This document shows, piece after piece, positions 1 to 12,301 of a DNA stretch of 14,819 nt; position 1 is the first letter of the stretch; every line of letters starts with the position of its first letter. The notes below the pieces were generated by a model. That model did no database searches. It worked only from the letters and a program-made list of their open reading frames with translations, and was not told the DNA's origin. This DNA is from an uncultured Candidatus Scalindua sp. (GTDB lineage Bacteria > Planctomycetota > Brocadiia > Brocadiales > Scalinduaceae): assembly GCA_964438395.1 (NCBI GenBank), contig CAYTLC010000047.1, positions 1 to 14,819 on the forward strand, written 5' to 3'. The position numbers were made by a program, and so were the translations under genes.

Positions 1-1101
1 ATTCTTCCCTGTGCCCATGCAGCCGAATCAACTACAGTGACGGTGGACGGTGTTGGCACATTAATAGGGAATGACAAGGCACGTGCGAGGGATGAGGCAC
101 TCAGAGACGCTTACCGGATGGCACTTGAAAAGGCCGGGGTTAACATGAGCACATATACAGAGATGGTGGACCTTGTCGTAATAAAGGATGTCGTACGCGC
201 AGAAGTATCTGGTCATGTGACGTCCTGGGAGATAGAAGATGAAGGTGTGCGGGGTGACGGTCTCTACTACGTGACCATAACGGCAAAAGTTGTAAAAGCT
301 CCTATTAAGAAAGATGATAAAGAGGCGTTGAGGTTGATTATAAACATGATGGGTAACCCCAGGTTTATCGTATTGATAGACGAGGCGAATAATGGAGAGA
401 AACCACCGTTTTCCACTCTTGAAGCTACGCTGACGGAGACATTGACTGATTATGGATACCACAGCATTGACCCGATACAGCAAAAAATAATTGAAGAGAC
501 AGAAGATGCCAGAAGGGCAATAGGGGGAGATACTAAAGCGGCACAGAAGCTTGCTATGAGAATGCAGGCTGACGTGATAATTACCGGCAAGGTATATACA
601 GAAAAGCTGCCAAAGAATGAGTACTTTAAAGAGACTAACTGGGTATCGAGCAAGGCATACAGTACTGTCCGGGCAGTAATCGCAGAGACGGGTAAGGTAC
701 TGGATGTTGCCAGCCCGGAGAAACCGGGCGCTGGATTGACCTTCAATGATGCAGGGACTAAGGCAATCAAACAGTGCGGACAGAGCCTGGCAGACGATCT
801 TATATGGAACATTCCTCAGCATATAGATGTTTATGACGGAAAAACCATTCAATTGCTGGTAAACGGGATCGAATACTCCGACTACTCTAAGTTGACCGGT
901 GAATTAAGAAACATGAGAAAGGTGACATATGTATTCCCAAGAGGATGGGAAAAAGATCAACCTGCTGTCTACGATGTAAAGACTATGGGTAATGCAGAAG
1001 CTCTGGCAGCAAGGCTTGAAGCTTTCGGTATGGAGATAGTAAGATTCAGTATGAATAAGATAGAGGTGAAAAAGGCTAAAAAGGGTTGGTTTAGTTGGTG
1101 A
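1..1101 (+). CDS. Secreted FlgT-like / LPP20-domain envelope protein; 5' end lies outside the window
   Basis: Frame 1 is open from base 1. The first residues (ILPCAHA|AESTT) look like the tail of a Sec signal peptide with an AxA cleavage site, so the GTG at 37 in the ORF track is probably internal. Stop TGA at 1099-1101. The N-terminal segment (DKARARDEALRDAYRMALEKAGV...DVVRAEVSGHVTSWEI...YYVTITAKV) fits the LPP20/FlgT-N pattern and is clearly paralogous to the N-domain of ORF 2965-3762. The middle segment (RFIVLIDE...ADVIITGKVY...VRAVIAETGKVL) resembles a CsgG/FlgO-type alpha/beta domain. The antisense ORFs inside it are shadows. Confidence 0.75.
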   Translation: MLPCAHAAESTTVTVDGVGTLIGNDKARARDEALRDAYRMALEKAGVNMSTYTEMVDLVVIKDVVRAEVSGHVTSWEIEDEGVRGDGLYYVTITAKVVKAPIKKDDKEALRLIINMMGNPRFIVLIDEANNGEKPPFSTLEATLTETLTDYGYHSIDPIQQKIIEETEDARRAIGGDTKAAQKLAMRMQADVIITGKVYTEKLPKNEYFKETNWVSSKAYSTVRAVIAETGKVLDVASPEKPGAGLTFNDAGTKAIKQCGQSLADDLIWNIPQHIDVYDGKTIQLLVNGIEYSDYSKLTGELRNMRKVTYVFPRGWEKDQPAVYDVKTMGNAEALAARLEAFGMEIVRFSMNKIEVKKAKKGWFSW

Positions 1102-1227
1102 TAGGGAAAGACAAAAGTCTGGATTCACAATCCCAGAATTTCTAAATCCTTAAATCAGTAAAAAATTTGAGTAAATTTGTTGAGTTAGTGTCGTCTTTTT
1201 TATCTTCATTAATCTGTGCCCCGGAAT

Positions 1228-2772
1228 ATGCATATGAAAAGATTATTTGCCCTGACACTGTTATTAGTCATTCTTTGTTCGATGTTCGGTTGTGTTACTG
1301 TGAATATCGTTAAGGATACACACACGGTACCACCACCTCCTCAACAGAAGCAGACGGTTCCTATGTATATGGAAAAGGAATATTCTGCCCCTCAGAAGGT
1401 TGATGCCTCCGAATTTGAGAAAGATATGAAGAGAGGCCGCGATCTTCTGAGCCGAAAACAGTACGGGGAGTCTATCGACTGTTTTAAAGCAATTGCGATA
1501 AGACATCCCAGAGAGACAAAGGTTCAGTACTATATTGCACTTGCCTATGACGAGAGTGGTGATAAGAGAGAGGCTTTACGGGGGTACAAGAGTTTCGTCG
1601 ATATTCAGACAGGTAATGAGGTACTGGTACGGAAGTCCAGGAGCAGGATACGTGTGCTCAAGGACACTATTGCGGAGGAGCTTATCAAGGCGGCAACTGT
1701 ACTTGTAGAGGACCATGAGTATGGAGGTTCTTTTAAGAGGCTTGAAGAGGCGTATGACCTGCGACCATCTCCTGCCACATCAAAGAAAATTGTAGAGCTG
1801 TATGACAGGTATTCAATAAACTCTATAGCCTGGCAGATGTCATCCTTCGGTGATTTGTTATCTGAGAACTCTGTATCTATCGTGCCTTTTACTGATCTGG
1901 CAGGAGAAGGGACCAGGGAGGGGAGTGCCGTTGCGATGGAGCTTAAGAATGAGCTTGTTAATATGGAGGAGTTAGATGTCTATGTTCGCGATGATGCTTC
2001 TCTCAAAGCTATATTGAATGAGGTAGAGTTTGGTGATTCCGGCGCCATTGATGAAAAGACAAGAATAGAGCTGGGCAAACTGGTAAGCACCGGGGCAGTT
2101 ATTACGGGCAGGATCGGTTATGTTGCAGATACATTTAAGATCAATGGATGGATGATAAATGTAGAGACCGGTAAGATAATTACATCCAGGAGCGTCAGTG
2201 TCCTCGGTTGGAATATTGCAGATACGGATAAGTACGCCGATTTCAATATCAAGGTATGGATGGACAGGAAGGAGTACATTATCGGAGATTCGGTGGAGAT
2301 AAATGTACAGACCAACAAGGATTGTTTTGTTACCCTGCTGAACGTTCGCAGTAACGGAGAGATATGGGAGCTGTTCCCCAATAGCTATAATAAGAACAAT
2401 TTCGTAAGGGCAAACACGAGGCACACTATTCCGTCTGGTAATGACAATTTTCGACTGGCCATAGTAGCACCTTCCGGCCAGGATTACATAAAGGCGATAG
2501 CCACCTCAGTACCTATAACCAGAGAGCAGATATCACAGGTACTCTCTGAAGAGAACTCTATCCTGGTATCCCCGGCAGACATCGTCAGGCAGAGAGGAGA
2601 ATCTGCCTTCAGGTCTGTCTCGCCATCAGAGATGAGGGGTCTTCATGAAATCCTGACAAGAGGAGTAGGAGTATTTCCCGATCCGAAAGGCAATCTCAGT
2701 TACAACAATTCCGACTCCGATACCAGGTTTGAGTACGCAGTGAGCACATGGTCGTTTGTGACTAAGAGATGA
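1228..2772 (+). CDS. Probable lipoprotein: TPR-like region + CsgG/FlgO/TolB-N-like periplasmic domain + DUF4384-like C-terminal domain
   Basis: The ORF opens at GTG 1216, with in-frame ATGs at 1228 and 1234. MKRLFALTLLLVILCSMFG|C is a signal peptide with a lipobox-like Cys. TPR-like helices: RGRDLLSRKQYGESIDCFKAIAIRHP...YYIALAYDESGDKREALRGYKSF. CsgG/FlgO-like core: VSIVPFTDLAGEG..GSAVAMELKNELVN...LKAILNEVEFGDSGAIDEKTRIELGKLVSTGAVITGRIGYV...INGWMINVETGKIITSRSV. DUF4384-like: IKVWMDRKEYIIGDSVEINVQTNKDCFVTLLNVRSNGEIWELFPN...HTIP...FRLAIVAPSGQDYIKAIATSVPI. Exact start is uncertain (1216, 1228 or 1234). Confidence 0.8.
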   Translation: MHMKRLFALTLLLVILCSMFGCVTVNIVKDTHTVPPPPQQKQTVPMYMEKEYSAPQKVDASEFEKDMKRGRDLLSRKQYGESIDCFKAIAIRHPRETKVQYYIALAYDESGDKREALRGYKSFVDIQTGNEVLVRKSRSRIRVLKDTIAEELIKAATVLVEDHEYGGSFKRLEEAYDLRPSPATSKKIVELYDRYSINSIAWQMSSFGDLLSENSVSIVPFTDLAGEGTREGSAVAMELKNELVNMEELDVYVRDDASLKAILNEVEFGDSGAIDEKTRIELGKLVSTGAVITGRIGYVADTFKINGWMINVETGKIITSRSVSVLGWNIADTDKYADFNIKVWMDRKEYIIGDSVEINVQTNKDCFVTLLNVRSNGEIWELFPNSYNKNNFVRANTRHTIPSGNDNFRLAIVAPSGQDYIKAIATSVPITREQISQVLSEENSILVSPADIVRQRGESAFRSVSPSEMRGLHEILTRGVGVFPDPKGNLSYNNSDSDTRFEYAVSTWSFVTKR

Positions 2773-2865
2773 TTGAATGCAATTTATTATTGGATCTATC
2801 TGCTTTTCTCTGCGTGAGAACTTTTCTTGCACCAGATCCACTTCCCACAACGATTAATAGGTAAA

Positions 2866-2897
2866 GCACTTAAGTTATTTGGATTAAGTGCGCTTTT
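2866..2897 (+). terminator. Candidate rho-independent terminator after the lipoprotein gene
   Basis: Perfect 8-bp stem GCACTTAA (2866-2873) / TTAAGTGC (2884-2891) with a 10-nt loop, followed by GCTTTTA. It lies 94 nt after the stop at 2772. Confidence 0.5.
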
Positions 2898-2964
2898 ACA
2901 ATAAGTTTCAGATTTTCAAACTCTAAACCCAATTATATTTATTTAAGAAGAAAGGGGTTGTGAT

Positions 2965-3762
2965 ATGTATCTACGGAGACTTAAACTTCTAGTGGTAGTT
3001 ATGCTGTTTGCAGGAATGGCGTTTACCGGTCAAGCCACGCTTAAGGCTGGTGAAAAGGTGTCCAGCGGAAAGGCAAATATTAATATTGGTGGAGGAGAGA
3101 GGGGTACCATTAACTGGGGTACAGAATTTATCACAGCGAAGGGTATTGTTCCGATAACACAGAATGAAGCGCTTGCAAGAAGAGGTGCTATAGTTGATGC
3201 CAACAGGAGATTACTGGAGATAATCAAGGGTGTTCGTATAGATGCCAAGACTGTTATATCCGACCTTATGGAAGTAAATGATGTCGTAAAGCAGGAGGTG
3301 AGCGGAGTGATTACCCATGCTGAGATAGTGAGTGAAAGCCAGAAGAACGGGAATTACATCATAAATATGCGGGTACCTGTGGGGAAATTCATCTCACTCA
3401 TTGTGAAAGACACACAGGTTTCCATACCGGACTTTCCGGCACCCACTAAATATACTGGACTGCTTATAGATGCCAGGGGGCACAATCTGGAGCCTGCAAT
3501 ATTTGTCAGTATATATAATGACAAGGACGGAACAAAGATATGCGGACCGATCCATCCAATATACCGCGTAAGTGTGAAGGGTCTTAGTAGTATCAATGAA
3601 GATCGTCTTGGTGACAATCCACTCAGGATCAAGATTAAGGGAACAACCGGTCCGAGCAATGTTGACATTACATTAAGTAATGGAAGCTCTAAAAAGGTGA
3701 GGAAGAAGATAATGAATACCGGGATATTCTCAAAGAGTAAGGTCATTATCATAATTGACTAG
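2965..3762 (+). CDS. Secreted LPP20/FlgP-like domain protein
   Basis: ATG at 2965 is preceded by AAAGGGG 7 nt upstream. Sec signal peptide MYLRRLKLLVVVMLFAGMAFTGQA|T. LPP20-type N-domain: ITAKGIVPITQNEALARRGAIVDANRRLLEIIKGVRIDAKT...DVVKQEVSGVITHAEI...YIINMRVPV. C-terminal half contains YTGLLIDARGHNLEPAIFVSIYNDKDG..ICG. Paralogous to the N-domain of the first gene. Confidence 0.8.
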   Translation: MYLRRLKLLVVVMLFAGMAFTGQATLKAGEKVSSGKANINIGGGERGTINWGTEFITAKGIVPITQNEALARRGAIVDANRRLLEIIKGVRIDAKTVISDLMEVNDVVKQEVSGVITHAEIVSESQKNGNYIINMRVPVGKFISLIVKDTQVSIPDFPAPTKYTGLLIDARGHNLEPAIFVSIYNDKDGTKICGPIHPIYRVSVKGLSSINEDRLGDNPLRIKIKGTTGPSNVDITLSNGSSKKVRKKIMNTGIFSKSKVIIIID

Positions 3763-3917: not shown

Positions 3918-5381
3918 TTAAACAGCTATGCCCTTGTCTGTCGGTACAGTAACAGCACTGCTCTTGTACCAATCCTTGTAATAGTCGCCTGAATCGTATA
4001 GTAGACGAAGATTTTCCAGCACCTGCTCAAACACTTGTATCCAGTCAGAGCCAACCCTGAACCCAAACATTGCATTACGTTTACCGTGAGTTGTGCTGCC
4101 GATAGTCTGAAGTGATTTTCTAAATCTTAGTCTTATATTGTCACCGGCGTACAGATGGTCATACATATATTGCATGCCTTCAATGAACTCCTCAAGGTTC
4201 ATATCTATGAGTCTATGAACTACATGTGCAGTATCATAATATTTCCAGTCTTCAGGATAGTTCTTTCTGAAAATCCTCTTTTCAGAGTCAAGCCTGTCGT
4301 AAAGCGCAGTCTTAGGAAACGGGCAGTTGATTCCAAAGGTAAGAACATCAATATTGTTTTGCAGTACAAAATCTGTCATCCTTTTGAATGAATCTTTGTC
4401 ATCTCCATCTGCTCCAAGAACTATTGATCCCCAGACAACCAGGCCATGATCGTGAATTTTCTGAACGCTGTCATAATACTTATCAGCACCAATCCTTAAG
4501 TTAGTCGTTTTATTCATCTTTTCCAGAACCGCTTCATTTGTTGATTCTATGCCGCAGAGAAATCCAAAATTTCCACTCTTTGCCATAAGATCAAGCACCT
4601 CTGCATCCTTTGATATATTGAGTGCAGTAAATCCAAGCCAGTCCTTTTTGATGCCCCTGTCTATCATGCCGCGAAAGAGGTCTTTTGCCCTGTTAGCAGA
4701 GTTCTTACTATGTCCATAGAAGTTATCTTCTGCAAACATGAGTCCCTGATAATCAGTTGATTCCATTTCGTCCAGAACATCTTCAAACGGTCTTTCTCTA
4801 TATTTCTTTCCCTGAAAGGTCGGTACGCTGCAGAAATCGCAGTAATTTGGACAACCTTTAGTTGTAACAATTGATGAAAACTTATAATCATATTTCTTCT
4901 TCAGGAGTTCTCTATCCGGAAATACATGTTTCATCTCTGACAGGCCTGGCAGCCCGCCTTCGTACTTCTTTTTGAGTTCGCCTTTTTCAAAATCTTTAAC
5001 GACTTGTGGCCACAATGTTTCGGCCTCTCCGATAAAAATTGCATCCACATGTTGTGAGGCTTCTTCCGGTACTACTGAAGCGTGTATGCCACCCATTACT
5101 ACGGTCATGCCTTTTTCTCTGCAGACCTTAGCTATCTGGTAAGCTCTTGGCACTTGATATGTAACAGAAGTGATACAAACCATATCCACAGGTTCAAATG
5201 TAATATCTCCTTTATCATCCAGAGCCAGTTCAAGATTTTCATCGATTACGTCAAACTCCCAGTCACCAGGTGTAAGGGCTGCTATGTATGCAAGATTTAA
5301 AGGCATTTGAACTATGACAGTTATGCTCTCCTCGCCATGTCTCCCGGGGGGATGTGGATTGATCAGCATCATTTTTCTCAT
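3918..5381 (-). CDS. Cobalamin (B12)-binding-domain radical SAM enzyme
   Basis: 487 aa. The N-terminal B12-binding-type Rossmann segment (MVCITSVTYQVPRAYQIAKVCREKGMTVVMGGIHASVVPEE) is followed by the radical SAM cluster motif TTKGCPNYCDFCS (CxxxCxxC). Strong SD AGGAGGA (5389-5395) sits 7 nt before ATG 5381 and overlaps the upstream gene's stop codon. Confidence 0.9.
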   Translation of the reverse strand: MRKMMLINPHPPGRHGEESITVIVQMPLNLAYIAALTPGDWEFDVIDENLELALDDKGDITFEPVDMVCITSVTYQVPRAYQIAKVCREKGMTVVMGGIHASVVPEEASQHVDAIFIGEAETLWPQVVKDFEKGELKKKYEGGLPGLSEMKHVFPDRELLKKKYDYKFSSIVTTKGCPNYCDFCSVPTFQGKKYRERPFEDVLDEMESTDYQGLMFAEDNFYGHSKNSANRAKDLFRGMIDRGIKKDWLGFTALNISKDAEVLDLMAKSGNFGFLCGIESTNEAVLEKMNKTTNLRIGADKYYDSVQKIHDHGLVVWGSIVLGADGDDKDSFKRMTDFVLQNNIDVLTFGINCPFPKTALYDRLDSEKRIFRKNYPEDWKYYDTAHVVHRLIDMNLEEFIEGMQYMYDHLYAGDNIRLRFRKSLQTIGSTTHGKRNAMFGFRVGSDWIQVFEQVLENLRLLYDSGDYYKDWYKSSAVTVPTDKGIAV

Positions 5382-5393
5382 TTTTTTATCCTC

Positions 5394-6827
5394 CTAATTA
5401 TTTAAAATCATATTGGCCACCCTCCAACCAGAGGATACTACAGCACATATCCCCGGCCCCGGATTAGTCCAGTGCCCGGCCAGAAAAAGATTTTTGAAGG
5501 GTGTTGTGTGTGAAAGTCTATTTGACCACGTCTGGTCTACAGTAACGGCCCAGCCATAGGCTGCGCCTTTTGAGTTGAGTGTGTAACGATATAACGTCTT
5601 CGGTGTGGCAGCGTCAATTACCTCTATATGGTCCTGGATTTCCGGTACAAAATTTTCCAGATAATTTATTGTATGTTTTTTCATTTTATCTTTATATGCA
5701 ACCCAATCGTCTATGTCGTCATAATTATCTCTTGACGAGACAACAACAGAAATTATTTGTTTGTTATCAGGTGCCAGGCTTGGATCAACTTCCGTAGGAA
5801 CGGAAATATAAAACCAGTCGTTACCTGAAAAACTTAAGTCATTTGATGTATGGTAAAAACCTCTTTTAAGGTCTTTTAAGTCTATTTTGTTATCAAGGCC
5901 AAGGTATAGTAAAAAGAAAGAAACACTTTCCTTCATATTCTCAATCTTGCGAAGATAAGAGTCGTCAACGCTGTTTTTGTCTAATAAAGAGAAAAATGTT
6001 TGTTTTGGATCTATGTTTGAGACAAAGATATCAGCCGAAATTTCCCCTCCTTTTTTAGTTGTAACTCCTTTTATAATATTACTATCCGTAAGCAATCCCT
6101 CAACGCTAGAAGATAGCATAATGTGACCGCCATAGTCAATAAATTTTTGGGTTATCGCATCAGCGAAATTCTGGGTACCACCGACAGGGAAATAAGCTCC
6201 ATCTTTTAGATAATTTACCAACATTTGACACATACCAATAGCTGAAACCTCATGAGGAGGGGAACCAATGTATCCCCACTGTGCAGACAGAGTCATCTTG
6301 AGCTGCTCATCTGTAAAAAAATTGTCCAGCATTTCCTTGTAGGTAAGGTTCTGGTATTTGATGAGCATTTTATGCGCTTCAGTGCTGAATGTAGCCCTGT
6401 ATAATCGGGTGAATTCCTTAAAAAATAGTGATAGTTGTTCTCTTTCTGATGGAAACCGTTCCTTCAGCAGATCCACATAATCATCTATTTCGGCAGGTAC
6501 ATCAATGGAAAATGAGGGGAAATGTATGCTGTCCATCGGATCAAGCTGTAGAAAATTAATATTTATGTCAAGCTCTTTAAGGCACCTGCCAACTACACTC
6601 CATTTTCCACACCCACCAATATGATGAACTGCTGAATCGAAAATAAAACCTTTTCTCTTAAAAGAGGTACAATAACCACCGGGGATACTATGTTGTTCAA
6701 TAATCAGCACGCTCTTTCCCTGTTTTGCCAGGAAAGTCCCGCAGATTAGACCGGCAATTCCGGCACCCAGTACAATTGCATCATACTTGGATTTAATTTC
6801 AGATTTGTTCAGGGAGAAATTACTCAT
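5394..6827 (-). CDS. FAD-dependent oxidoreductase, phytoene desaturase (CrtI/CrtD)-like
   Basis: 477 aa. N-terminal dinucleotide-binding motif YDAIVLGAGIAGLICGTFLAKQGKSVLIIEQHSIPGG. C-terminal FAD-contact motif NLFLAGHWTNPGPGICAVVSSG, typical of the CrtI/amine-oxidase superfamily. Lies 19 nt downstream of the KS-like gene. Confidence 0.85.
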   Translation of the reverse strand: MSNFSLNKSEIKSKYDAIVLGAGIAGLICGTFLAKQGKSVLIIEQHSIPGGYCTSFKRKGFIFDSAVHHIGGCGKWSVVGRCLKELDININFLQLDPMDSIHFPSFSIDVPAEIDDYVDLLKERFPSEREQLSLFFKEFTRLYRATFSTEAHKMLIKYQNLTYKEMLDNFFTDEQLKMTLSAQWGYIGSPPHEVSAIGMCQMLVNYLKDGAYFPVGGTQNFADAITQKFIDYGGHIMLSSSVEGLLTDSNIIKGVTTKKGGEISADIFVSNIDPKQTFFSLLDKNSVDDSYLRKIENMKESVSFFLLYLGLDNKIDLKDLKRGFYHTSNDLSFSGNDWFYISVPTEVDPSLAPDNKQIISVVVSSRDNYDDIDDWVAYKDKMKKHTINYLENFVPEIQDHIEVIDAATPKTLYRYTLNSKGAAYGWAVTVDQTWSNRLSHTTPFKNLFLAGHWTNPGPGICAVVSSGWRVANMILNN

Positions 6828-6846: not shown

Positions 6847-8079
6847 TTATGAATATTTTGAGATGATTACGGAAGAGATGTTGCCTGTGTCGGAAAAGGA
6901 GTTGACCAGTACATTGTTTACTTCTGCCTCTCTGCTATCGTTAGGTACGCAATCCAGGTTACACTCTTCATCTTTTTCCTGATAGTTTATTGTCGGAGGG
7001 ATTATACCGTTATTGATTGATAATACACCGGCAACACATTGTAATGAACCTGATGCGTCAAGGCACTCTCCTGTCATAGACTTTATAGCACTTACAGGTA
7101 CTTTATCAGCGCTGTCACCAAAGTAGTCTCTAATGATTTTTGCTTCCATCATGTCACCTGTTACGCTGGAATTTGCACATGCGGATATATAAGAAACGTC
7201 TTCTTTGTTAATCCCGGCATCTTCCATTGCCATAGAGATACTCCTTACACCTTGAGTAGTGTTAATATCGTCACGTGAGGTTTTGTCCGGATTAAACGTA
7301 CATCCGTACCCTTTTATCTCGGCATAGATTTTCGCATTTCTCTCCAATGCGTCTTCAAGCCTTTCTATAACAAGTAACGCAGAAGCTTCACCAATTACAA
7401 AGCCGTTACGTCTTTTGTCAAATGGCGCGGAGATTTCAGCAGCATCACTGCTTCCTGACAATACTCCTGAACTGTAAGCACCCCAGAAAATATCACGGGT
7501 TAAACCATGAACTCCACCGGCTAATACAGCTTTTCCTCTACCTAGCTGTAGGAAATCAGAGGCGTAAATGATAGCGTCCAGTCCGCTGGCAGTTCCATTA
7601 GATATTGTAGAATTTAAACCTGTCGCATTGCAGAAAATAGATACTCTGCTTGCCGGTGCATTCAAGACAGTGTTCGGGAATGCCATGGGATTTACGAAAG
7701 TTGGTCCTTCCTGTAATCCTTCCAGGTCGAATGAGCTGATACTATCAATACTTCCATACGTTGACCCGATTACTATTCCAGTTTCTTCGGCACCATAAGT
7801 TTCGTGAGTGATATTAGCATCTTCCATGGCAAGCTTTGCAGAAGAAGATACCAATAGCGATGTTCTGTCAATGTGCCTGATGCCTTTTTTACCCAGGTAT
7901 TCCTTTGGATCAAAATCAGCAATCTCACCCGCTTTTTTGCTTTTGAATTTGGACACGTCAAAAAGGGTGATATCTTTTATTCCTGAGACACCATTCGTCA
8001 AATTGGTCCAGAACTCATCCTTGTTTACACCGATTGGCGATAAAACACTAATTCCTGTTATAACCAGGCGACTATCCAT
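6847..8079 (-). CDS. Ketosynthase-like protein lacking the catalytic Cys-His-His triad (chain-length-factor-like partner subunit)
   Basis: 410 aa with the full-length KAS-II fold (RLVITGISVLSPIGVNKDEFW...; ...PPTINY...CNLDCVPN). In a by-eye alignment to E. coli FabF, the active-site Cys is Thr163 (STISNGTASG; ACT at 7591-7593), the first His is Cys301 (YISACANSS; TGT at 7177-7179), the catalytic Lys is Met310 (GDMME) and the second His is Glu338 (KSMTGECL; GAG at 7066-7068). The ORF is intact with no frameshift. Confidence 0.85.
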   Translation of the reverse strand: MDSRLVITGISVLSPIGVNKDEFWTNLTNGVSGIKDITLFDVSKFKSKKAGEIADFDPKEYLGKKGIRHIDRTSLLVSSSAKLAMEDANITHETYGAEETGIVIGSTYGSIDSISSFDLEGLQEGPTFVNPMAFPNTVLNAPASRVSIFCNATGLNSTISNGTASGLDAIIYASDFLQLGRGKAVLAGGVHGLTRDIFWGAYSSGVLSGSSDAAEISAPFDKRRNGFVIGEASALLVIERLEDALERNAKIYAEIKGYGCTFNPDKTSRDDINTTQGVRSISMAMEDAGINKEDVSYISACANSSVTGDMMEAKIIRDYFGDSADKVPVSAIKSMTGECLDASGSLQCVAGVLSINNGIIPPTINYQEKDEECNLDCVPNDSREAEVNNVLVNSFSDTGNISSVIISKYS

Positions 8080-8128
8080 ATAATTTTAAACCTCTTATTA
8101 TGAAAATAATTTAATAACTGAAAAAATA

Positions 8129-8160: not shown

Positions 8161-9387
8161 TTAGCCGGTAAACCTTTTTAGTATGAGGCTGCTATTGTTA
8201 CCACCAAATGCATATGCGTTATTCATGGCAATATCAACCTGCATTTCACGCTTAACATTAGGTACAAAATCCAGATCGCACTCAGGATCCTTTGTTTCGT
8301 AATTTATAGTTGGAGGCACAACACTCTCTTTAATGGCTAAAGCGCATGCGATTGCCTCTATGGCGCTGGCAGCTCCCATTGTATGTCCAAGCATCGACTT
8401 TATGGAACTTATCGCCAGATTCTTTGCATGTTCTCCAAAGACCCTCTTAATAGATATTGTTTCCGCCTTGTCGTTAGCTACTGTTCCCGTACCATGAGCA
8501 CTCATATACTGAACATCTTCGGGCTTGATTTTTGCACTTTGCAACGCTTTTGTCATAGCCGAAGTAACACCATTTCCCTCCGGATGTGGAATTGTAATGT
8601 GATAACCGTCACAACTAAGTCCATAACCCAGGATCTCGGCATAAATATTTGCGCCTCTAGCCAGTGCACCTTCCATAGATTCTAATACCAGCATTCCGGC
8701 ACCTTCACCAACCAACAGGCCTTTTCTGTTCTTATCAAAAGGTTGGCAAATGTCAGGTGCAATAGCATTTAGCCTGCTAAAACCGACAAATGCTACTTTA
8801 GAAAACGGATCAGAGCCGCCGGCAAGCATTATGTCAGCTCTACCTAATTTTATCAGGTCACATGCATATCCAATAGCATAGTTTCCCGCTGCACATGCAG
8901 TAGGTATTATTGTGCTTGGCCCTTTAAGACCAAATTCAATAGATATGTTAGACGGCATATTGACGCAGGGATGCTGATGGAACAGACCGGGGTCTACGCT
9001 ATCCTCACCCTTCTCATGTCTGATATAGTTTACTTTTTCCAGAATCTGAATTTCACCTGCAGTTGTTCCAATTGAAACACCTGTTCTTTCAGGGTCAGTA
9101 TTGTTCAGGTCAACATTAGAGTCATCGATAGCGAGTTTTGCAGCAGCTATGGCAAATTGTGAACCTTTGCCAATCTCTCGATTTGAACCATTTTTTGTGT
9201 AATCTCCATAATTGAAATCTTTGACTGTACAGCCTCTGTGAACTTTAAAAGGAGAGGTGTCAAATGATGTGATCTCAGATACACCGGATGTGCCTGAGAT
9301 TAATGCATCCCAAAACAGATCTTTTGTGTTTCCAATAGGGGAGATTACACCTAAACCGGTAATTACAATTCTTTTATCTTTATCCAT
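8161..9387 (-). CDS. fabF: Beta-ketoacyl-ACP synthase, KAS II (FabF) family, catalytically complete
   Basis: 408 aa. N-terminus [24 protein letters not shown]. Active-site Cys165 ([14 protein letters not shown]), His298 (YMSAHGTGT), Lys306 (NDKAE), His335 ([11 protein letters not shown]). C-terminus [13 protein letters not shown]. Starts 29 nt after the fabZ stop. Confidence 0.9.
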
Positions 9388-9416: not shown

Positions 9417-9866
9417 TTATCCTGTTAATGAATCTTTGTCCGCAACACCAAAGCTCAACGTCGCTTTTGTTACAACTTTGTCTCCCACTTTTGCCACTCC
9501 CTTAACTATTGCCGCACTGGAAATGACCTTTTCAATATCTACTTCCAGAATAAGCTGGTCACCGGGAAATACGGGTTTTGAAAAACGTACGTTTGCGGAA
9601 GCCAACAAGAAGACTTTATCTTTATTCTGCTCGGTATCAAAGCTCTTTTTGAAGAGGATAATCGAGGCTTGCGCCAGAGCTTCTACAATGAGAACCCCAG
9701 GCATTATGGCAAAATCAGGGAAGTGTCCAACGAAGAAAGACTCATTGCCGGAGATGTTTTTCAGGCAAACAATTCTGCTCTCTTTTTGAAGTTCAGTAAC
9801 TTTATCAATAAATAAGAAAGGGTATTTTTGAGGAACCAACTCTCTTACTTCCTCAAAGTTCAACAT
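9417..9866 (-). CDS. fabZ: 3-hydroxyacyl-ACP dehydratase FabZ
   Basis: 149 aa hot-dog fold protein. LVPQKYPFLFIDKV; catalytic His in FFVGHFPDFAIMPGVLIVEALAQ, with the catalytic Glu in VEALAQ; PVFPGDQLILEV. Collinear with E. coli FabZ. Confidence 0.92.
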   Translation of the reverse strand: MLNFEEVRELVPQKYPFLFIDKVTELQKESRIVCLKNISGNESFFVGHFPDFAIMPGVLIVEALAQASIILFKKSFDTEQNKDKVFLLASANVRFSKPVFPGDQLILEVDIEKVISSAAIVKGVAKVGDKVVTKATLSFGVADKDSLTG

Positions 9867-9973: not shown

Positions 9974-10225
9974 TTATCCTTCAAGTGTAGACCTGGTCAT
10001 CTCAATAGTTGCATTCAATGATGTAATGTCTACAAGTTTTTCTTCCGGAATTTGAACCTTAAACTTCTTTTCTATAAGGGCAAGAATTTCCAATGCCAAT
10101 AAGGAATCAATTTCCAGATCCTTAAAAAAATCAGCATCCCTTTTTTCCCATATTTCAGTCTCATCCAGCTCGGTTACTTCAGCAACAATAGCAGTGATAT
10201 CTTTCTCTAAGTTCTCTGCAGACAA
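9974..10225 (-). CDS. acpP: Acyl carrier protein (cluster-dedicated ACP)
   Basis: 83 aa acidic protein with the phosphopantetheine attachment motif DLEIDSLLALEIL (DSL). It uses a TTG start at 10225-10223. GGAGG (10233-10237) lies 7 nt upstream and an in-frame TAG at 10238-10240 blocks any longer ORF. Confidence 0.88.
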   Translation of the reverse strand: MSAENLEKDITAIVAEVTELDETEIWEKRDADFFKDLEIDSLLALEILALIEKKFKVQIPEEKLVDITSLNATIEMTRSTLEG

Positions 10226-10668
10226 TATCTTACCTCCCTAATAAACAACCAGAAATCTAACTATGAACCCAAAACACCAATCAAAAAGCTATTTAAACGG
10301 GTATTTATGAAGTTACATTCTGTAAAAATTATTGATCTAAAAGTATTGATAGTATTTGATTACGATAAAATGAAAATTATCGAAAAGGGAAAAATAACAA
10401 ACTTATATCAATATGTCAATAACAATCTTAGGACAATTTACATTGTTGACAGGTATAGACGATTACTGTTAGGAATAGTATATATTCAATCCAAACTGAT
10501 GGCATTTGAAACCGGTCCGAAAAACGTTGTTAATGAGTGTTTTCCTGGTGTATGTGCAGTAGAGAAGAACGGCGGAATGAAGTCGCGTAGGACTGACAAA
10601 AGTGTATAAGTCTCTAAGGTCACAGGACTTTCTATTATAATTGGTACTAGTTTTTTATTTAAATATAC

Positions 10669-10697
10669 TTGACAACAATACTTAGTATGGATAAACT
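10669..10697 (+). promoter_or_regulatory. Candidate sigma-70-type promoter for parA
   Basis: TTGACA (10669-10674), a 17-nt spacer, then TAAACT (10692-10697), about 55 nt upstream of ATG 10751. Pattern match only. Promoter rules in this lineage are not established. Confidence 0.35.
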
Positions 10698-10750
10698 TTT
10701 CACTATTATCCTGATATTTTCTATAAAAGCACAAATCAATGAGGAGCAAA

Positions 10751-11653: not shown

Positions 11654-12301
11654 GTGGCAAAAAAAAATGTACTTGGGTCGGATCCATTTGAGTGGTTAAA
11701 GAAGGATGATAAAGAAGAGGGCACTGAAGATAAGAAGAGCGATATTGGTGCTCAGAAGAAACAGGAAGAGAAACAAGCTGACCCGGTAGTAGCTAAAGAA
11801 GAGACAAGTGTTAAACAGGAAGTTAAACAAGAAGTAAAGCAGGAAGTAGAAAAGGAAGTAAAGAGTGAGGTAAAGAAAGAAGTAAAGAAAGAGGTAAAGA
11901 AGAAAGTAAAGCAGGAAGCGAAAGCATACGAACCTATAGATGTCTCCGCCACAACTAAACCACCGGTCAGCAAGGCTTACGATAAAATAATAGAACCATA
12001 TCTCCAGCAGGAAGAAGAAGCTTTTGAACCCAGTGACATATCAGAGGCAAATCGAAAAGCTGTTTTGGGTAAGGATGTCTATGCTCATCATGCCAAATCT
12101 CGTAAAGCAACACAAAAAGATAGCCCCGCAACTGCATTTGTAATTGTATACACAGTCTTATTGCTGATTCTCGGTTTCATAGTCTATAAAGATCTGACAA
12201 AACAGATTAATAAATTGGAGACGAAGTTGGACCGTGTAGAAAAGAAGCTTGATGAGGGTGTAATAGACTACGAGGATGCAAAACTAGATGGTGAGTGGTG
12301 A
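11654..12301 (+). CDS. Lys/Glu-rich repeat protein with a single TM helix and C-terminal coiled coil; possible ParA partner or adaptor
   Basis: GTG start at 11654 is the only start available: in-frame TAA at 11639-11641 and no Met codon anywhere in the 215 aa. AAGGAAAG lies upstream. The first ~165 aa are highly charged and include nine VK(Q/K)E tetrapeptide repeats. Hydrophobic helix ATAFVIVYTVLLLILGFIVY, then heptad-like KDLTKQINKLETKLDRVEKKLDEG. The protein ends ...KLDGEW. No family recognised. Confidence 0.7.
   Translation: MAKKNVLGSDPFEWLKKDDKEEGTEDKKSDIGAQKKQEEKQADPVVAKEETSVKQEVKQEVKQEVEKEVKSEVKKEVKKEVKKKVKQEAKAYEPIDVSATTKPPVSKAYDKIIEPYLQQEEEAFEPSDISEANRKAVLGKDVYAHHAKSRKATQKDSPATAFVIVYTVLLLILGFIVYKDLTKQINKLETKLDRVEKKLDEGVIDYEDAKLDGEW
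11810..11917 (+). repeat. 9 x 12-bp in-frame tandem repeat (GTWAARSARGAR-like) encoding (V-K/E-x-E)n
   Basis: Units in order: gttaaacaggaa, gttaaacaagaa, gtaaagcaggaa, gtagaaaaggaa, gtaaagagtgag, gtaaagaaagaa, gtaaagaaagag, gtaaagaagaaa, gtaaagcaggaa. They are contiguous from 11810 to 11917. Confidence 0.9.

Follow-up and report, generated by a model that had tools for sequence, protein, structure and literature searches.

The window analysed here is the whole of a 14,819-nucleotide stretch, contig CAYTLC010000047.1 (assembly GCA_964438395.1) of an uncultured Candidatus Scalindua sp. The gene of interest, at 6847–8079 on the minus strand, encodes a ketosynthase (KS) paralogue without the Cys-His-His catalytic triad. 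Its open reading frame (ORF) begins with ATG, runs for 410 aa with no internal stop, and is covered end to end by both ketoacyl-synthase domains at full length (PF00109 and PF02801), confirming the intact ORF described in the first-pass annotation of this DNA. The best match of the product in the PDB is chain C of 9S5H, the amxFabFmut protein of Brocadia fulgida (66% identity over 407 residues, E-value 2e-174). The gene also lies in the same context as amxFabFmut. The six-gene "Cluster I" of anammox bacteria consists of the genes encoding an acyl carrier protein (ACP), FabZ, FabF2, FabFmut, a phytoene-desaturase-like protein and a B12-binding radical SAM enzyme, and all six are present in the window in that order on the minus strand, which is also the order of KustE3603–3608 (Table 1). 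Based on these matches, the 6847–8079 product is the Scalindua orthologue of amxFabFmut.

The replaced active-site residues were located with two alignments, one made with HMMER against Bacillus subtilis FabF (PDB 4LS5) and one with BLASTP against the KS encoded directly upstream (36% identity). Both place Thr163, Cys301 and Glu338 opposite the nucleophilic Cys, the first His and the second His, and neither places Cys, His and His at the catalytic positions. The first-pass annotation had claimed the same three substitutions, and the codons that it quoted for them are exact. Alignment to 4LS5 shows further losses: the gate Phe is Asp397, the two Thr residues that follow the first His are Asn303 and Ser305, and the Glu that pairs with Lys in active enzymes is Gln347. 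Asp309 and Glu312 are retained.

A fourth claimed substitution, of the catalytic Lys by Met310, does not hold. The annotation had listed the catalytic residues of the upstream KS as C165, H298, K306 and H335; while C165, H298 and H335 are correct, residue 306 is Asp and the neighbouring Lys is K307. This Lys lies within an ND-K-xE motif just after the first His and is therefore not the active-site Lys; its counterpart in the paralogue is Met310. The active-site Lys of condensing enzymes is found five residues before the second His (K328 in Escherichia coli FabB; Rattray 2009, Table 2, PMC2649909). It corresponds to K330 in the upstream KS and is kept as K333 in the 6847–8079 product. The triad has been replaced, but the description of a "whole catalytic set" replaced was overstated, and the retention of the catalytic Lys may be a useful correction to it.

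Table 1. Positions of the KS paralogue gene, its diagnostic residues and the neighbouring Cluster I genes, numbered from the first nucleotide of the window.
Feature	Position	Strand	Basis
Triad-less ketosynthase paralogue, amxFabFmut orthologue (KustE3606 / Broful02170 / Scabro02228)	6847..8079	-	Intact ORF, Pfam, 9S5H_C match
Thr163, codon ACT, at nucleophilic-Cys position	7591..7593	-	HMMER and BLASTP alignments, codon read
Cys301, codon TGT, at first-His position	7177..7179	-	HMMER and BLASTP alignments, codon read
Glu338, codon GAG, at second-His position	7066..7068	-	HMMER and BLASTP alignments, codon read
Lys333, codon AAG, kept active-site Lys (= E. coli FabB K328)	7081..7083	-	Alignment, codon read
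Met310, codon ATG, opposite K307 of upstream KS; not the catalytic Lys	7150..7152	-	BLASTP alignment, codon read
Gln347, at position of the Glu that pairs with Lys in active ketosynthases	7039..7041	-	
Helix-loop-helix, residues 110–140, with F134/T137/V138	7660..7752	-	Most conserved stretch of the family
Ribosome-binding site AAGAGG, 11 nt before the ATG of the 6847–8079 gene	8091..8096	-	Direct sequence reading
Active KS partner, amxFabF2 orthologue; C165, H298, K330, H335, gate F394	8161..9387	-	9S5H_B match, NF005589
amxFabZ dehydratase	9417..9866	-	~94% identical to S. brodae amxFabZ, PDB 8AYB/7QV0
amxACP acyl carrier protein	9974..10225	-	PF00550; best PDB matches 7QV0_D, 7AUF, 9S5I_E
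Phytoene-desaturase-like flavin adenine dinucleotide (FAD) amine oxidase (KustE3607 equivalent)	5394..6827	-	PF01593; TIGR02734 match below cutoff; syntenic
B12-binding radical SAM enzyme (KustE3608 equivalent)	3918..5381	-	PF02310, PF04055; syntenic

The same positions were examined in 116 orthologues with 63–100% identity to the 6847–8079 product. Position 163 is Thr in 59, Val in 47, Ile in five and Glu in five; it is never Cys and never Gln. Position 301 is Cys in 99 and Asn in the remaining 17, the Asn being the residue of the Brocadiaceae, and position 338 is Glu in every orthologue. Lys333, Asp309, Glu312 and Gln347 are likewise invariant. With no Cys at 163 and no His at 301 or 338 among 116 proteins, replacement of the triad is not a chance event. 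Since the residues at 163 (Thr, Val, Ile or Glu) and 301 (Cys or Asn) vary, the substitutions do not define a new catalytic set or a new nucleophile. Two candidate readings of individual residues were rejected on the same evidence: Cys301 as a relocated nucleophile, because the Brocadiaceae have Asn there, and any significance of the Met310 substitution, since most orthologues (62/116) carry Lys there. Met310 is not a family feature.

Loss of all three triad residues and of the gate Phe could also mark a decaying duplicate, a pseudogene in the making, and the gene does evolve somewhat faster than its partner (86% versus 91% amino-acid identity for the same genome pair). However, the ORF is full length in all surveyed homologues (Scalinduaceae and Brocadiaceae), 112 of the 410 positions (27%) are invariant across the 116 orthologues, the gene has a ribosome-binding site of its own, and both KS paralogues of the cluster are expressed according to a bioRxiv preprint of May 2026 (10.64898/2026.05.19.726425). 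Furthermore, in pairwise comparisons with 15 orthologous loci, the median ratio of nonsynonymous to synonymous substitution rates (dN/dS) is 0.074 (range 0.043–0.099). Median values for the neighbours over these loci are 0.051 for the partner KS, 0.063 for FabZ, 0.087 for the oxidase and 0.050 for the radical SAM gene, and the four cluster genes other than the two KS genes range from 0.023 to 0.087. Purifying selection on the paralogue is strong, and therefore decay is ruled out; we regard it as extremely improbable. Relaxed, pseudogene-like evolution had been named by the annotation as a reason to abandon a retained structural role, and that role stands.

The distribution of constraint along the protein points in the same direction. 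Within the helix-loop-helix at residues 110–140, 65% of positions are invariant, compared with 27% overall, and F134, T137 and V138 are located in an invariant FPNTVLNAP motif. In a matched comparison of 17 genomes, conservation of the partner KS peaks around the catalytic residues (0.75–0.76 invariant), whereas that of the 6847–8079 protein peaks at residues 110–195; in the C-terminal catalytic half the invariant fractions are 0.51 and 0.22 for the 6847–8079 protein and 0.76 and 0.57 for the partner KS. Conservation is thus greatest at the helix-loop-helix that lines the partner's tunnel and not at the former active site; the constraint has moved. This pattern is the one expected of a subunit selected for interface and tunnel-lid function.

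Much is already known about orthologues of this protein. Kuste3606 was described by Rattray et al. in 2009 as deviating from FabF at several active-site positions (Val163, Asn298, Tyr300, Gly302, Glu333, Gln342 and Arg392, with Lys328 kept), and the authors ruled it out as a normal FabF (PMC2649909). The preprint named the two paralogues amxFabF2 and amxFabFmut and noted Thr at the Cys position in Scalindua brodae (10.64898/2026.05.19.726425). The Kuenenia and Brocadia pairs co-purify and co-elute, and malonyl-ACP decarboxylation, acetoacetyl-ACP formation and mechanism-based crosslinking all need both subunits, neither being active alone. Crystal structures 9S5H and 9S5I are of the heterodimer, which in the 2.6-Å structure has a single working active site. 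In B. fulgida amxFabFmut, Phe135, Thr138 and Val139 of the helix-loop-helix line the active partner's substrate tunnel, and the V139G and F135G/V139G changes in the inactive subunit shift the preference among C6, C8 and C16 chains in the crosslinking assay (all 10.64898/2026.05.19.726425). The annotation's proposal of a partner that resembles a chain-length factor (CLF) in a KS/KS-beta heterodimer is therefore right but not new, since it has been reported for the Kuenenia and Brocadia orthologues. The inactive-partner finding is already known and the window adds one more orthologue.

We consider it highly likely that the 6847–8079 product is an amxFabFmut-type inactive heterodimer partner that shapes the tunnel of amxFabF2 in the putative ladderane cluster. 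Under this explanation, a FabF-derived protein with the ketosynthase fold would have lost its condensing ability and would be co-transcribed with the intact KS gene directly upstream (amxFabF2). A 1:1 heterodimer would replace the usual FabF homodimer, and within it only the amxFabF2 active site would work. The helix-loop-helix of the inactive subunit (residues ~110–140, with F134, T137 and V138) would form the lid and a wall of the partner's acyl tunnel, making the partner active and biasing the chain length that it accepts, and the subunit would also help to build the surface on which the cluster's own ACP docks. The resulting role would resemble that of a CLF inside a fatty-acid-type pathway, here a putative ladderane lipid cluster. 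The present study shows the identity of the protein, the replacement of its triad with retention of the Lys, the conserved gene order, purifying selection and the conservation pattern. That the Scalindua pair behaves like the Kuenenia and Brocadia pairs, forming a heterodimer with joint activity, we infer from orthology, synteny and the conserved helix-loop-helix.

Should the protein be catalytic after all, it would be a non-canonical condensing or acyl-transfer enzyme using other residues, such as Cys301 (in Scalindua) or the invariant Lys333 and Glu338. A role of this type was proposed by Rattray et al., who suggested that Kuste3606 might join a short acyl chain with a ladderane unit made separately (2009, PMC2649909). 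The intact ORF and strong purifying selection are compatible with this idea, as are the five residues (Lys333, Glu338, Asp309, Glu312 and Gln347) that are invariant in the former active site, and in the B. fulgida structure a second tunnel leading to the mutated triad held a polyethylene glycol (PEG) molecule (10.64898/2026.05.19.726425). However, no alternative nucleophile is conserved at 163 or 301, conservation peaks at the interface and tunnel lid and not at the pocket, and isolated orthologues show no decarboxylation, condensation or crosslinking (10.64898/2026.05.19.726425). An independent catalytic role is therefore unlikely in our view.

Several points weigh against the heterodimer partner as well. 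The only Scalindua structure in the preprint is an amxFabFmut homodimer in which the helix-loop-helix is disordered; no in vitro elongation past acetoacetyl-ACP was seen; and the evidence for chain-length control comes from a crosslinking reaction that is not physiological (10.64898/2026.05.19.726425). The key paper is a preprint, and its experiments on the pair concern the Kuenenia and Brocadia orthologues. Charge counts over residues 110–140 and the interacting helix at 196–206 fail to show the electrostatic asymmetry described in the preprint, even in the crystallised B. fulgida pair. As the counts fail on that pair too, the measure is uninformative about heterodimer specificity. Finally, strict invariance of Lys333, Glu338, Asp309, Glu312 and Gln347 in a "dead" pocket is unexplained by a purely passive role.

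The S. brodae homodimer raises the question of whether the protein could act on its own, as a homodimer or monomer without an obligate KS partner, either binding acyl-ACP or lipid without catalysis or serving as a regulator. In addition to that crystal form, the inactive subunit of the B. fulgida heterodimer has its own tunnel, separate from the active site, which would suit such a function (10.64898/2026.05.19.726425). Against this, the authors of the preprint attribute the disorder of the helix-loop-helix in the homodimer to charge repulsion, and orthologues come through co-purification as heterodimers and need each other for activity (10.64898/2026.05.19.726425). Throughout the wider clade described below, an intact KS gene adjoins the triad-less gene, is located close to it or forms a fusion with it. 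We consider a stand-alone function very unlikely.

The conserved residues of the former pocket deserve separate comment. Triad-less partners from anammox bacteria, Omnitrophota and other uncultured lineages, as well as the fusion proteins, keep the equivalents of Lys333, Asp309 and Glu312. The Glu that pairs with Lys in active ketosynthases has become Gln in the window protein and is Gln, Asn or Ser in the wider clade, and the second-His position has turned acidic (Glu338 in the window protein). This looks like a charge swap in which a Lys333–Glu338 salt bridge might take the place of the original Lys–Glu pair, a testable idea. We tentatively suggest, as a rather doubtful proposal, that the conserved swap reflects a retained function of the second tunnel and defines an old, widespread, FabF-derived KS-beta family of which the anammox protein would be one branch. 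Such a function could be the binding or parking of an ACP-borne intermediate or assistance in malonyl-ACP decarboxylation; alternatively, the swap may be a structural salt bridge only. The annotation's suggestion that the protein holds a polyunsaturated intermediate is speculation.

The remaining genes of the window agree with the assignment of the cluster. The upstream KS matches chain B of PDB 9S5H at 71% identity (E-value 1e-202) and scores above the cutoff of NCBIfam NF005589. Every Scalindua locus with sufficient flanking DNA shows the six-gene synteny. A terminator scan of the window found no terminator-like site between the two KS genes, although promoter and terminator scans of the window returned sites no more numerous than expected by chance; an Rfam scan of the window gave no match. 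Cluster I (KustE3603–3608) is the main candidate for ladderane lipid synthesis (10.64898/2026.05.19.726425). The biosynthesis of these lipids has long been an unsolved problem, and among the puzzles of the cluster was its inactive ketosynthase, now largely explained by others as a partner that resembles a CLF. The B12 radical SAM enzyme scores 83 bits against NCBIfam TIGR04072 ("rSAM_ladder_B12"), for which the cutoff is 360, and it therefore falls outside this family with a ladderane-related name.

One metagenomic sequence is 100% identical to the 6847–8079 protein, proteins of two Candidatus Scalindua metagenome-assembled genomes (MAGs) are 96% identical to it, and FabZ differs from S. brodae amxFabZ at about eight of 144 positions. 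To judge from these identities, the host is an anammox bacterium, a Scalindua species near to but distinct from S. brodae. A Scalindua cluster at 89–96% amino-acid identity to the window was also found in CAXMPV010000082.1 (locus L004), a contig binned as Thermodesulfobacteriota that is most likely mis-binned. Outside the lipid cluster, three consecutive plus-strand genes at 37–3762, convergent to it, carry FlgT_N-like or DUF4384 domains and are possibly envelope or lipoprotein genes. An AT-rich divergent intergenic region of 0.5 kb (10226–10738; G+C content ~0.34) separates the ACP gene from a gene for a ParA-like ATPase. Further along, a 215-aa ORF without a Pfam match (11654–12301) shares a 34-nt overlap with the 3' end of a convergent biotin-ligase-like gene.

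The protein was placed among its relatives by searching 1.84 billion cluster representatives, and the best 150 were classified. Single triad-less KS proteins account for 68 of these and fusions of an intact and a triad-less KS (~800 aa) for 42; the others are single intact KSs (13), large multidomain polyketide synthases (PKSs; 25) and other two-KS proteins (2). The nearest relatives are thus mostly other triad-less KS proteins and not FabFs. Among the 68 triad-less singles, 58 have both the retained Lys and a Glu at the second-His position, and in the wider clade nearly all members keep the Lys and nearly all have Glu or Asp at that position. Many of the relatives at 47–51% identity are annotated as Candidatus Omnitrophica or Omnitrophota.

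A neighbour-joining tree separates all triad-less from all intact sequences in 90 of 100 bootstrap replicates, and in 122 of 200 once the active-site columns are removed, which is moderate support from a simple method and from a tree that does not include classical CLFs. The partner KSs of anammox bacteria, of a Logan contig described below (L049) and of Omnitrophota group together in 170 of 200 replicates. The family is nested in a larger set of triad-less KSs outside known anammox genomes, which bears on whether the arrangement is special to ladderane producers.

Two Omnitrophota loci (L050:8736-17258 and L052:1000-9536) contain a helix-turn-helix regulator, a triad-less KS with Phe at the Cys position and Glu at the second-His position, a ketoreductase, an ACP, a FabZ/ApeI-like dehydratase and an intact KS 53–56% identical to amxFabF2, with an amine oxidase, 33% identical to that of the window, further on. 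No B12 radical SAM gene was found in these two loci. Their conserved gene set suggests that the pairing of a KS with an inactive KS predates anammox bacteria or extends beyond them. Other triad-less members lie beside intact KS genes in polyketide-like contexts. In P0129 (genomic context L056), P0132, P0134 and about 40 other representatives, a protein of ~800 aa carries an intact KS, mostly N-terminal, fused with a triad-less one, which would amount to a covalently linked form of the heterodimer. The P0132 cluster includes a member, P0381, with the annotation Candidatus Helarchaeota archaeon. The whole Cluster I order (ACP, FabZ, KS, triad-less KS, oxidase, radical SAM) recurs at 45–60% identity in L049:644-12727, part of a 17.5-kb contig from Logan SRR32147499 with a G+C content of 0.57. 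In addition, this locus encodes an enoyl-CoA hydratase, another KS/triad-less pair and two further B12 radical SAM paralogues. Its dead KS has its nearest named relatives in Candidatus Brocadiales MAGs, at ~50% identity, and the contig could come from a deeply branching anammox lineage or from a carrier of Cluster I outside the anammox bacteria.

Compared with known systems, the 6847–8079 protein shares its fold and length with canonical FabF (B. subtilis 4LS5, E. coli 2GFW), which provides its nearest sequence relatives outside the triad-less clade, and it keeps Asp309, Glu312 and Lys333. Unlike FabF, it has no triad, gate Phe or Thr-x-Thr motif, and FabFs are homodimers while amxFabFmut orthologues form heterodimers. 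It falls below every NCBIfam KS cutoff (351.5 against 493.75 for TIGR03150; 337.8 against 387 for NF005589).

In canonical aromatic type II PKS systems, the CLF has Gln at the Cys position. The window protein resembles such a CLF (actinorhodin CLF, PDB 1TQY chain B) as a KS-fold paralogue that lacks the nucleophilic Cys and adjoins an active KS gene, and the data on amxFabFmut orthologues extend the likeness to a heterodimer with interface residues that shape the acyl tunnel. It differs in having Thr163, with Gln absent from this position in all 116 orthologues, and in a pathway context that is fatty-acid-like and not aromatic polyketide. Placement relative to classical CLFs (actinorhodin, Iga12) was by bit-score ranking against PDB chains. 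The 6847–8079 product scores 288 bits with B. subtilis FabF and 177.5 with the actinorhodin KS, and the actinorhodin CLF is outside its best 60 matches; a profile of the clade scores FabFs at ~360–436 bits and the actinorhodin CLF (1TQY_B) at 287. The annotation had separated the protein from Gln-type CLFs, and these scores agree. It appears to work like a CLF while being no member of the aromatic type II PKS CLF family, and by sequence it is closer to FabF than to the actinorhodin KS or CLF.

A further parallel is Iga11/Iga12 of the highly reducing type II PKS for ishigamide (PDB 6KXD–6KXF), a KS/CLF heterodimer that acts on reduced chains. Iga11 is the closest structural homologue of amxFabF2 (10.64898/2026.05.19.726425) and also matches the active KS of the window strongly in sequence (347 bits). 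Iga12 is outside the best 60 PDB matches of both the 6847–8079 product and the clade profile; no specific kinship of the inactive subunits was seen.

The wider triad-less partners (Omnitrophota, uncultured lineages and fusions) are 40–51% identical to the window protein and share its signature: a residue other than Cys, a residue other than His, then Asn, Asp, Glu and Lys, followed by Glu or Asp at the second-His position. Their contexts are also similar, being beside, near or fused to an intact KS, with an ACP, a FabZ/ApeI-like dehydratase and, at several loci, an amine oxidase. They differ in that Phe is usual at the Cys position, the gene order is another and a ketoreductase is present.

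The closest likeness is to amxFabFmut itself (KustE3606; Broful02170, chain C of 9S5H and 9S5I; Scabro02228), with which it shares the six-gene context, the absence of Cys-His-His and the kept Lys. In amxFabFmut proteins the Cys is replaced by Val or Thr and the two His residues by Asn or Cys and by Glu, with the Lys kept; the window protein has T163, C301, E338 and K333. S. brodae amxFabFmut is reported to have this Thr/Cys/Glu pattern as well, although Thr at the Cys position proves to be common in Scalindua-type sequences (59/116), alongside Ile and Glu variants, and not an exception of S. brodae. The host of the gene is another Scalindua species, with a FabZ ~94% identical to that of S. 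brodae and best genome matches at 96%.

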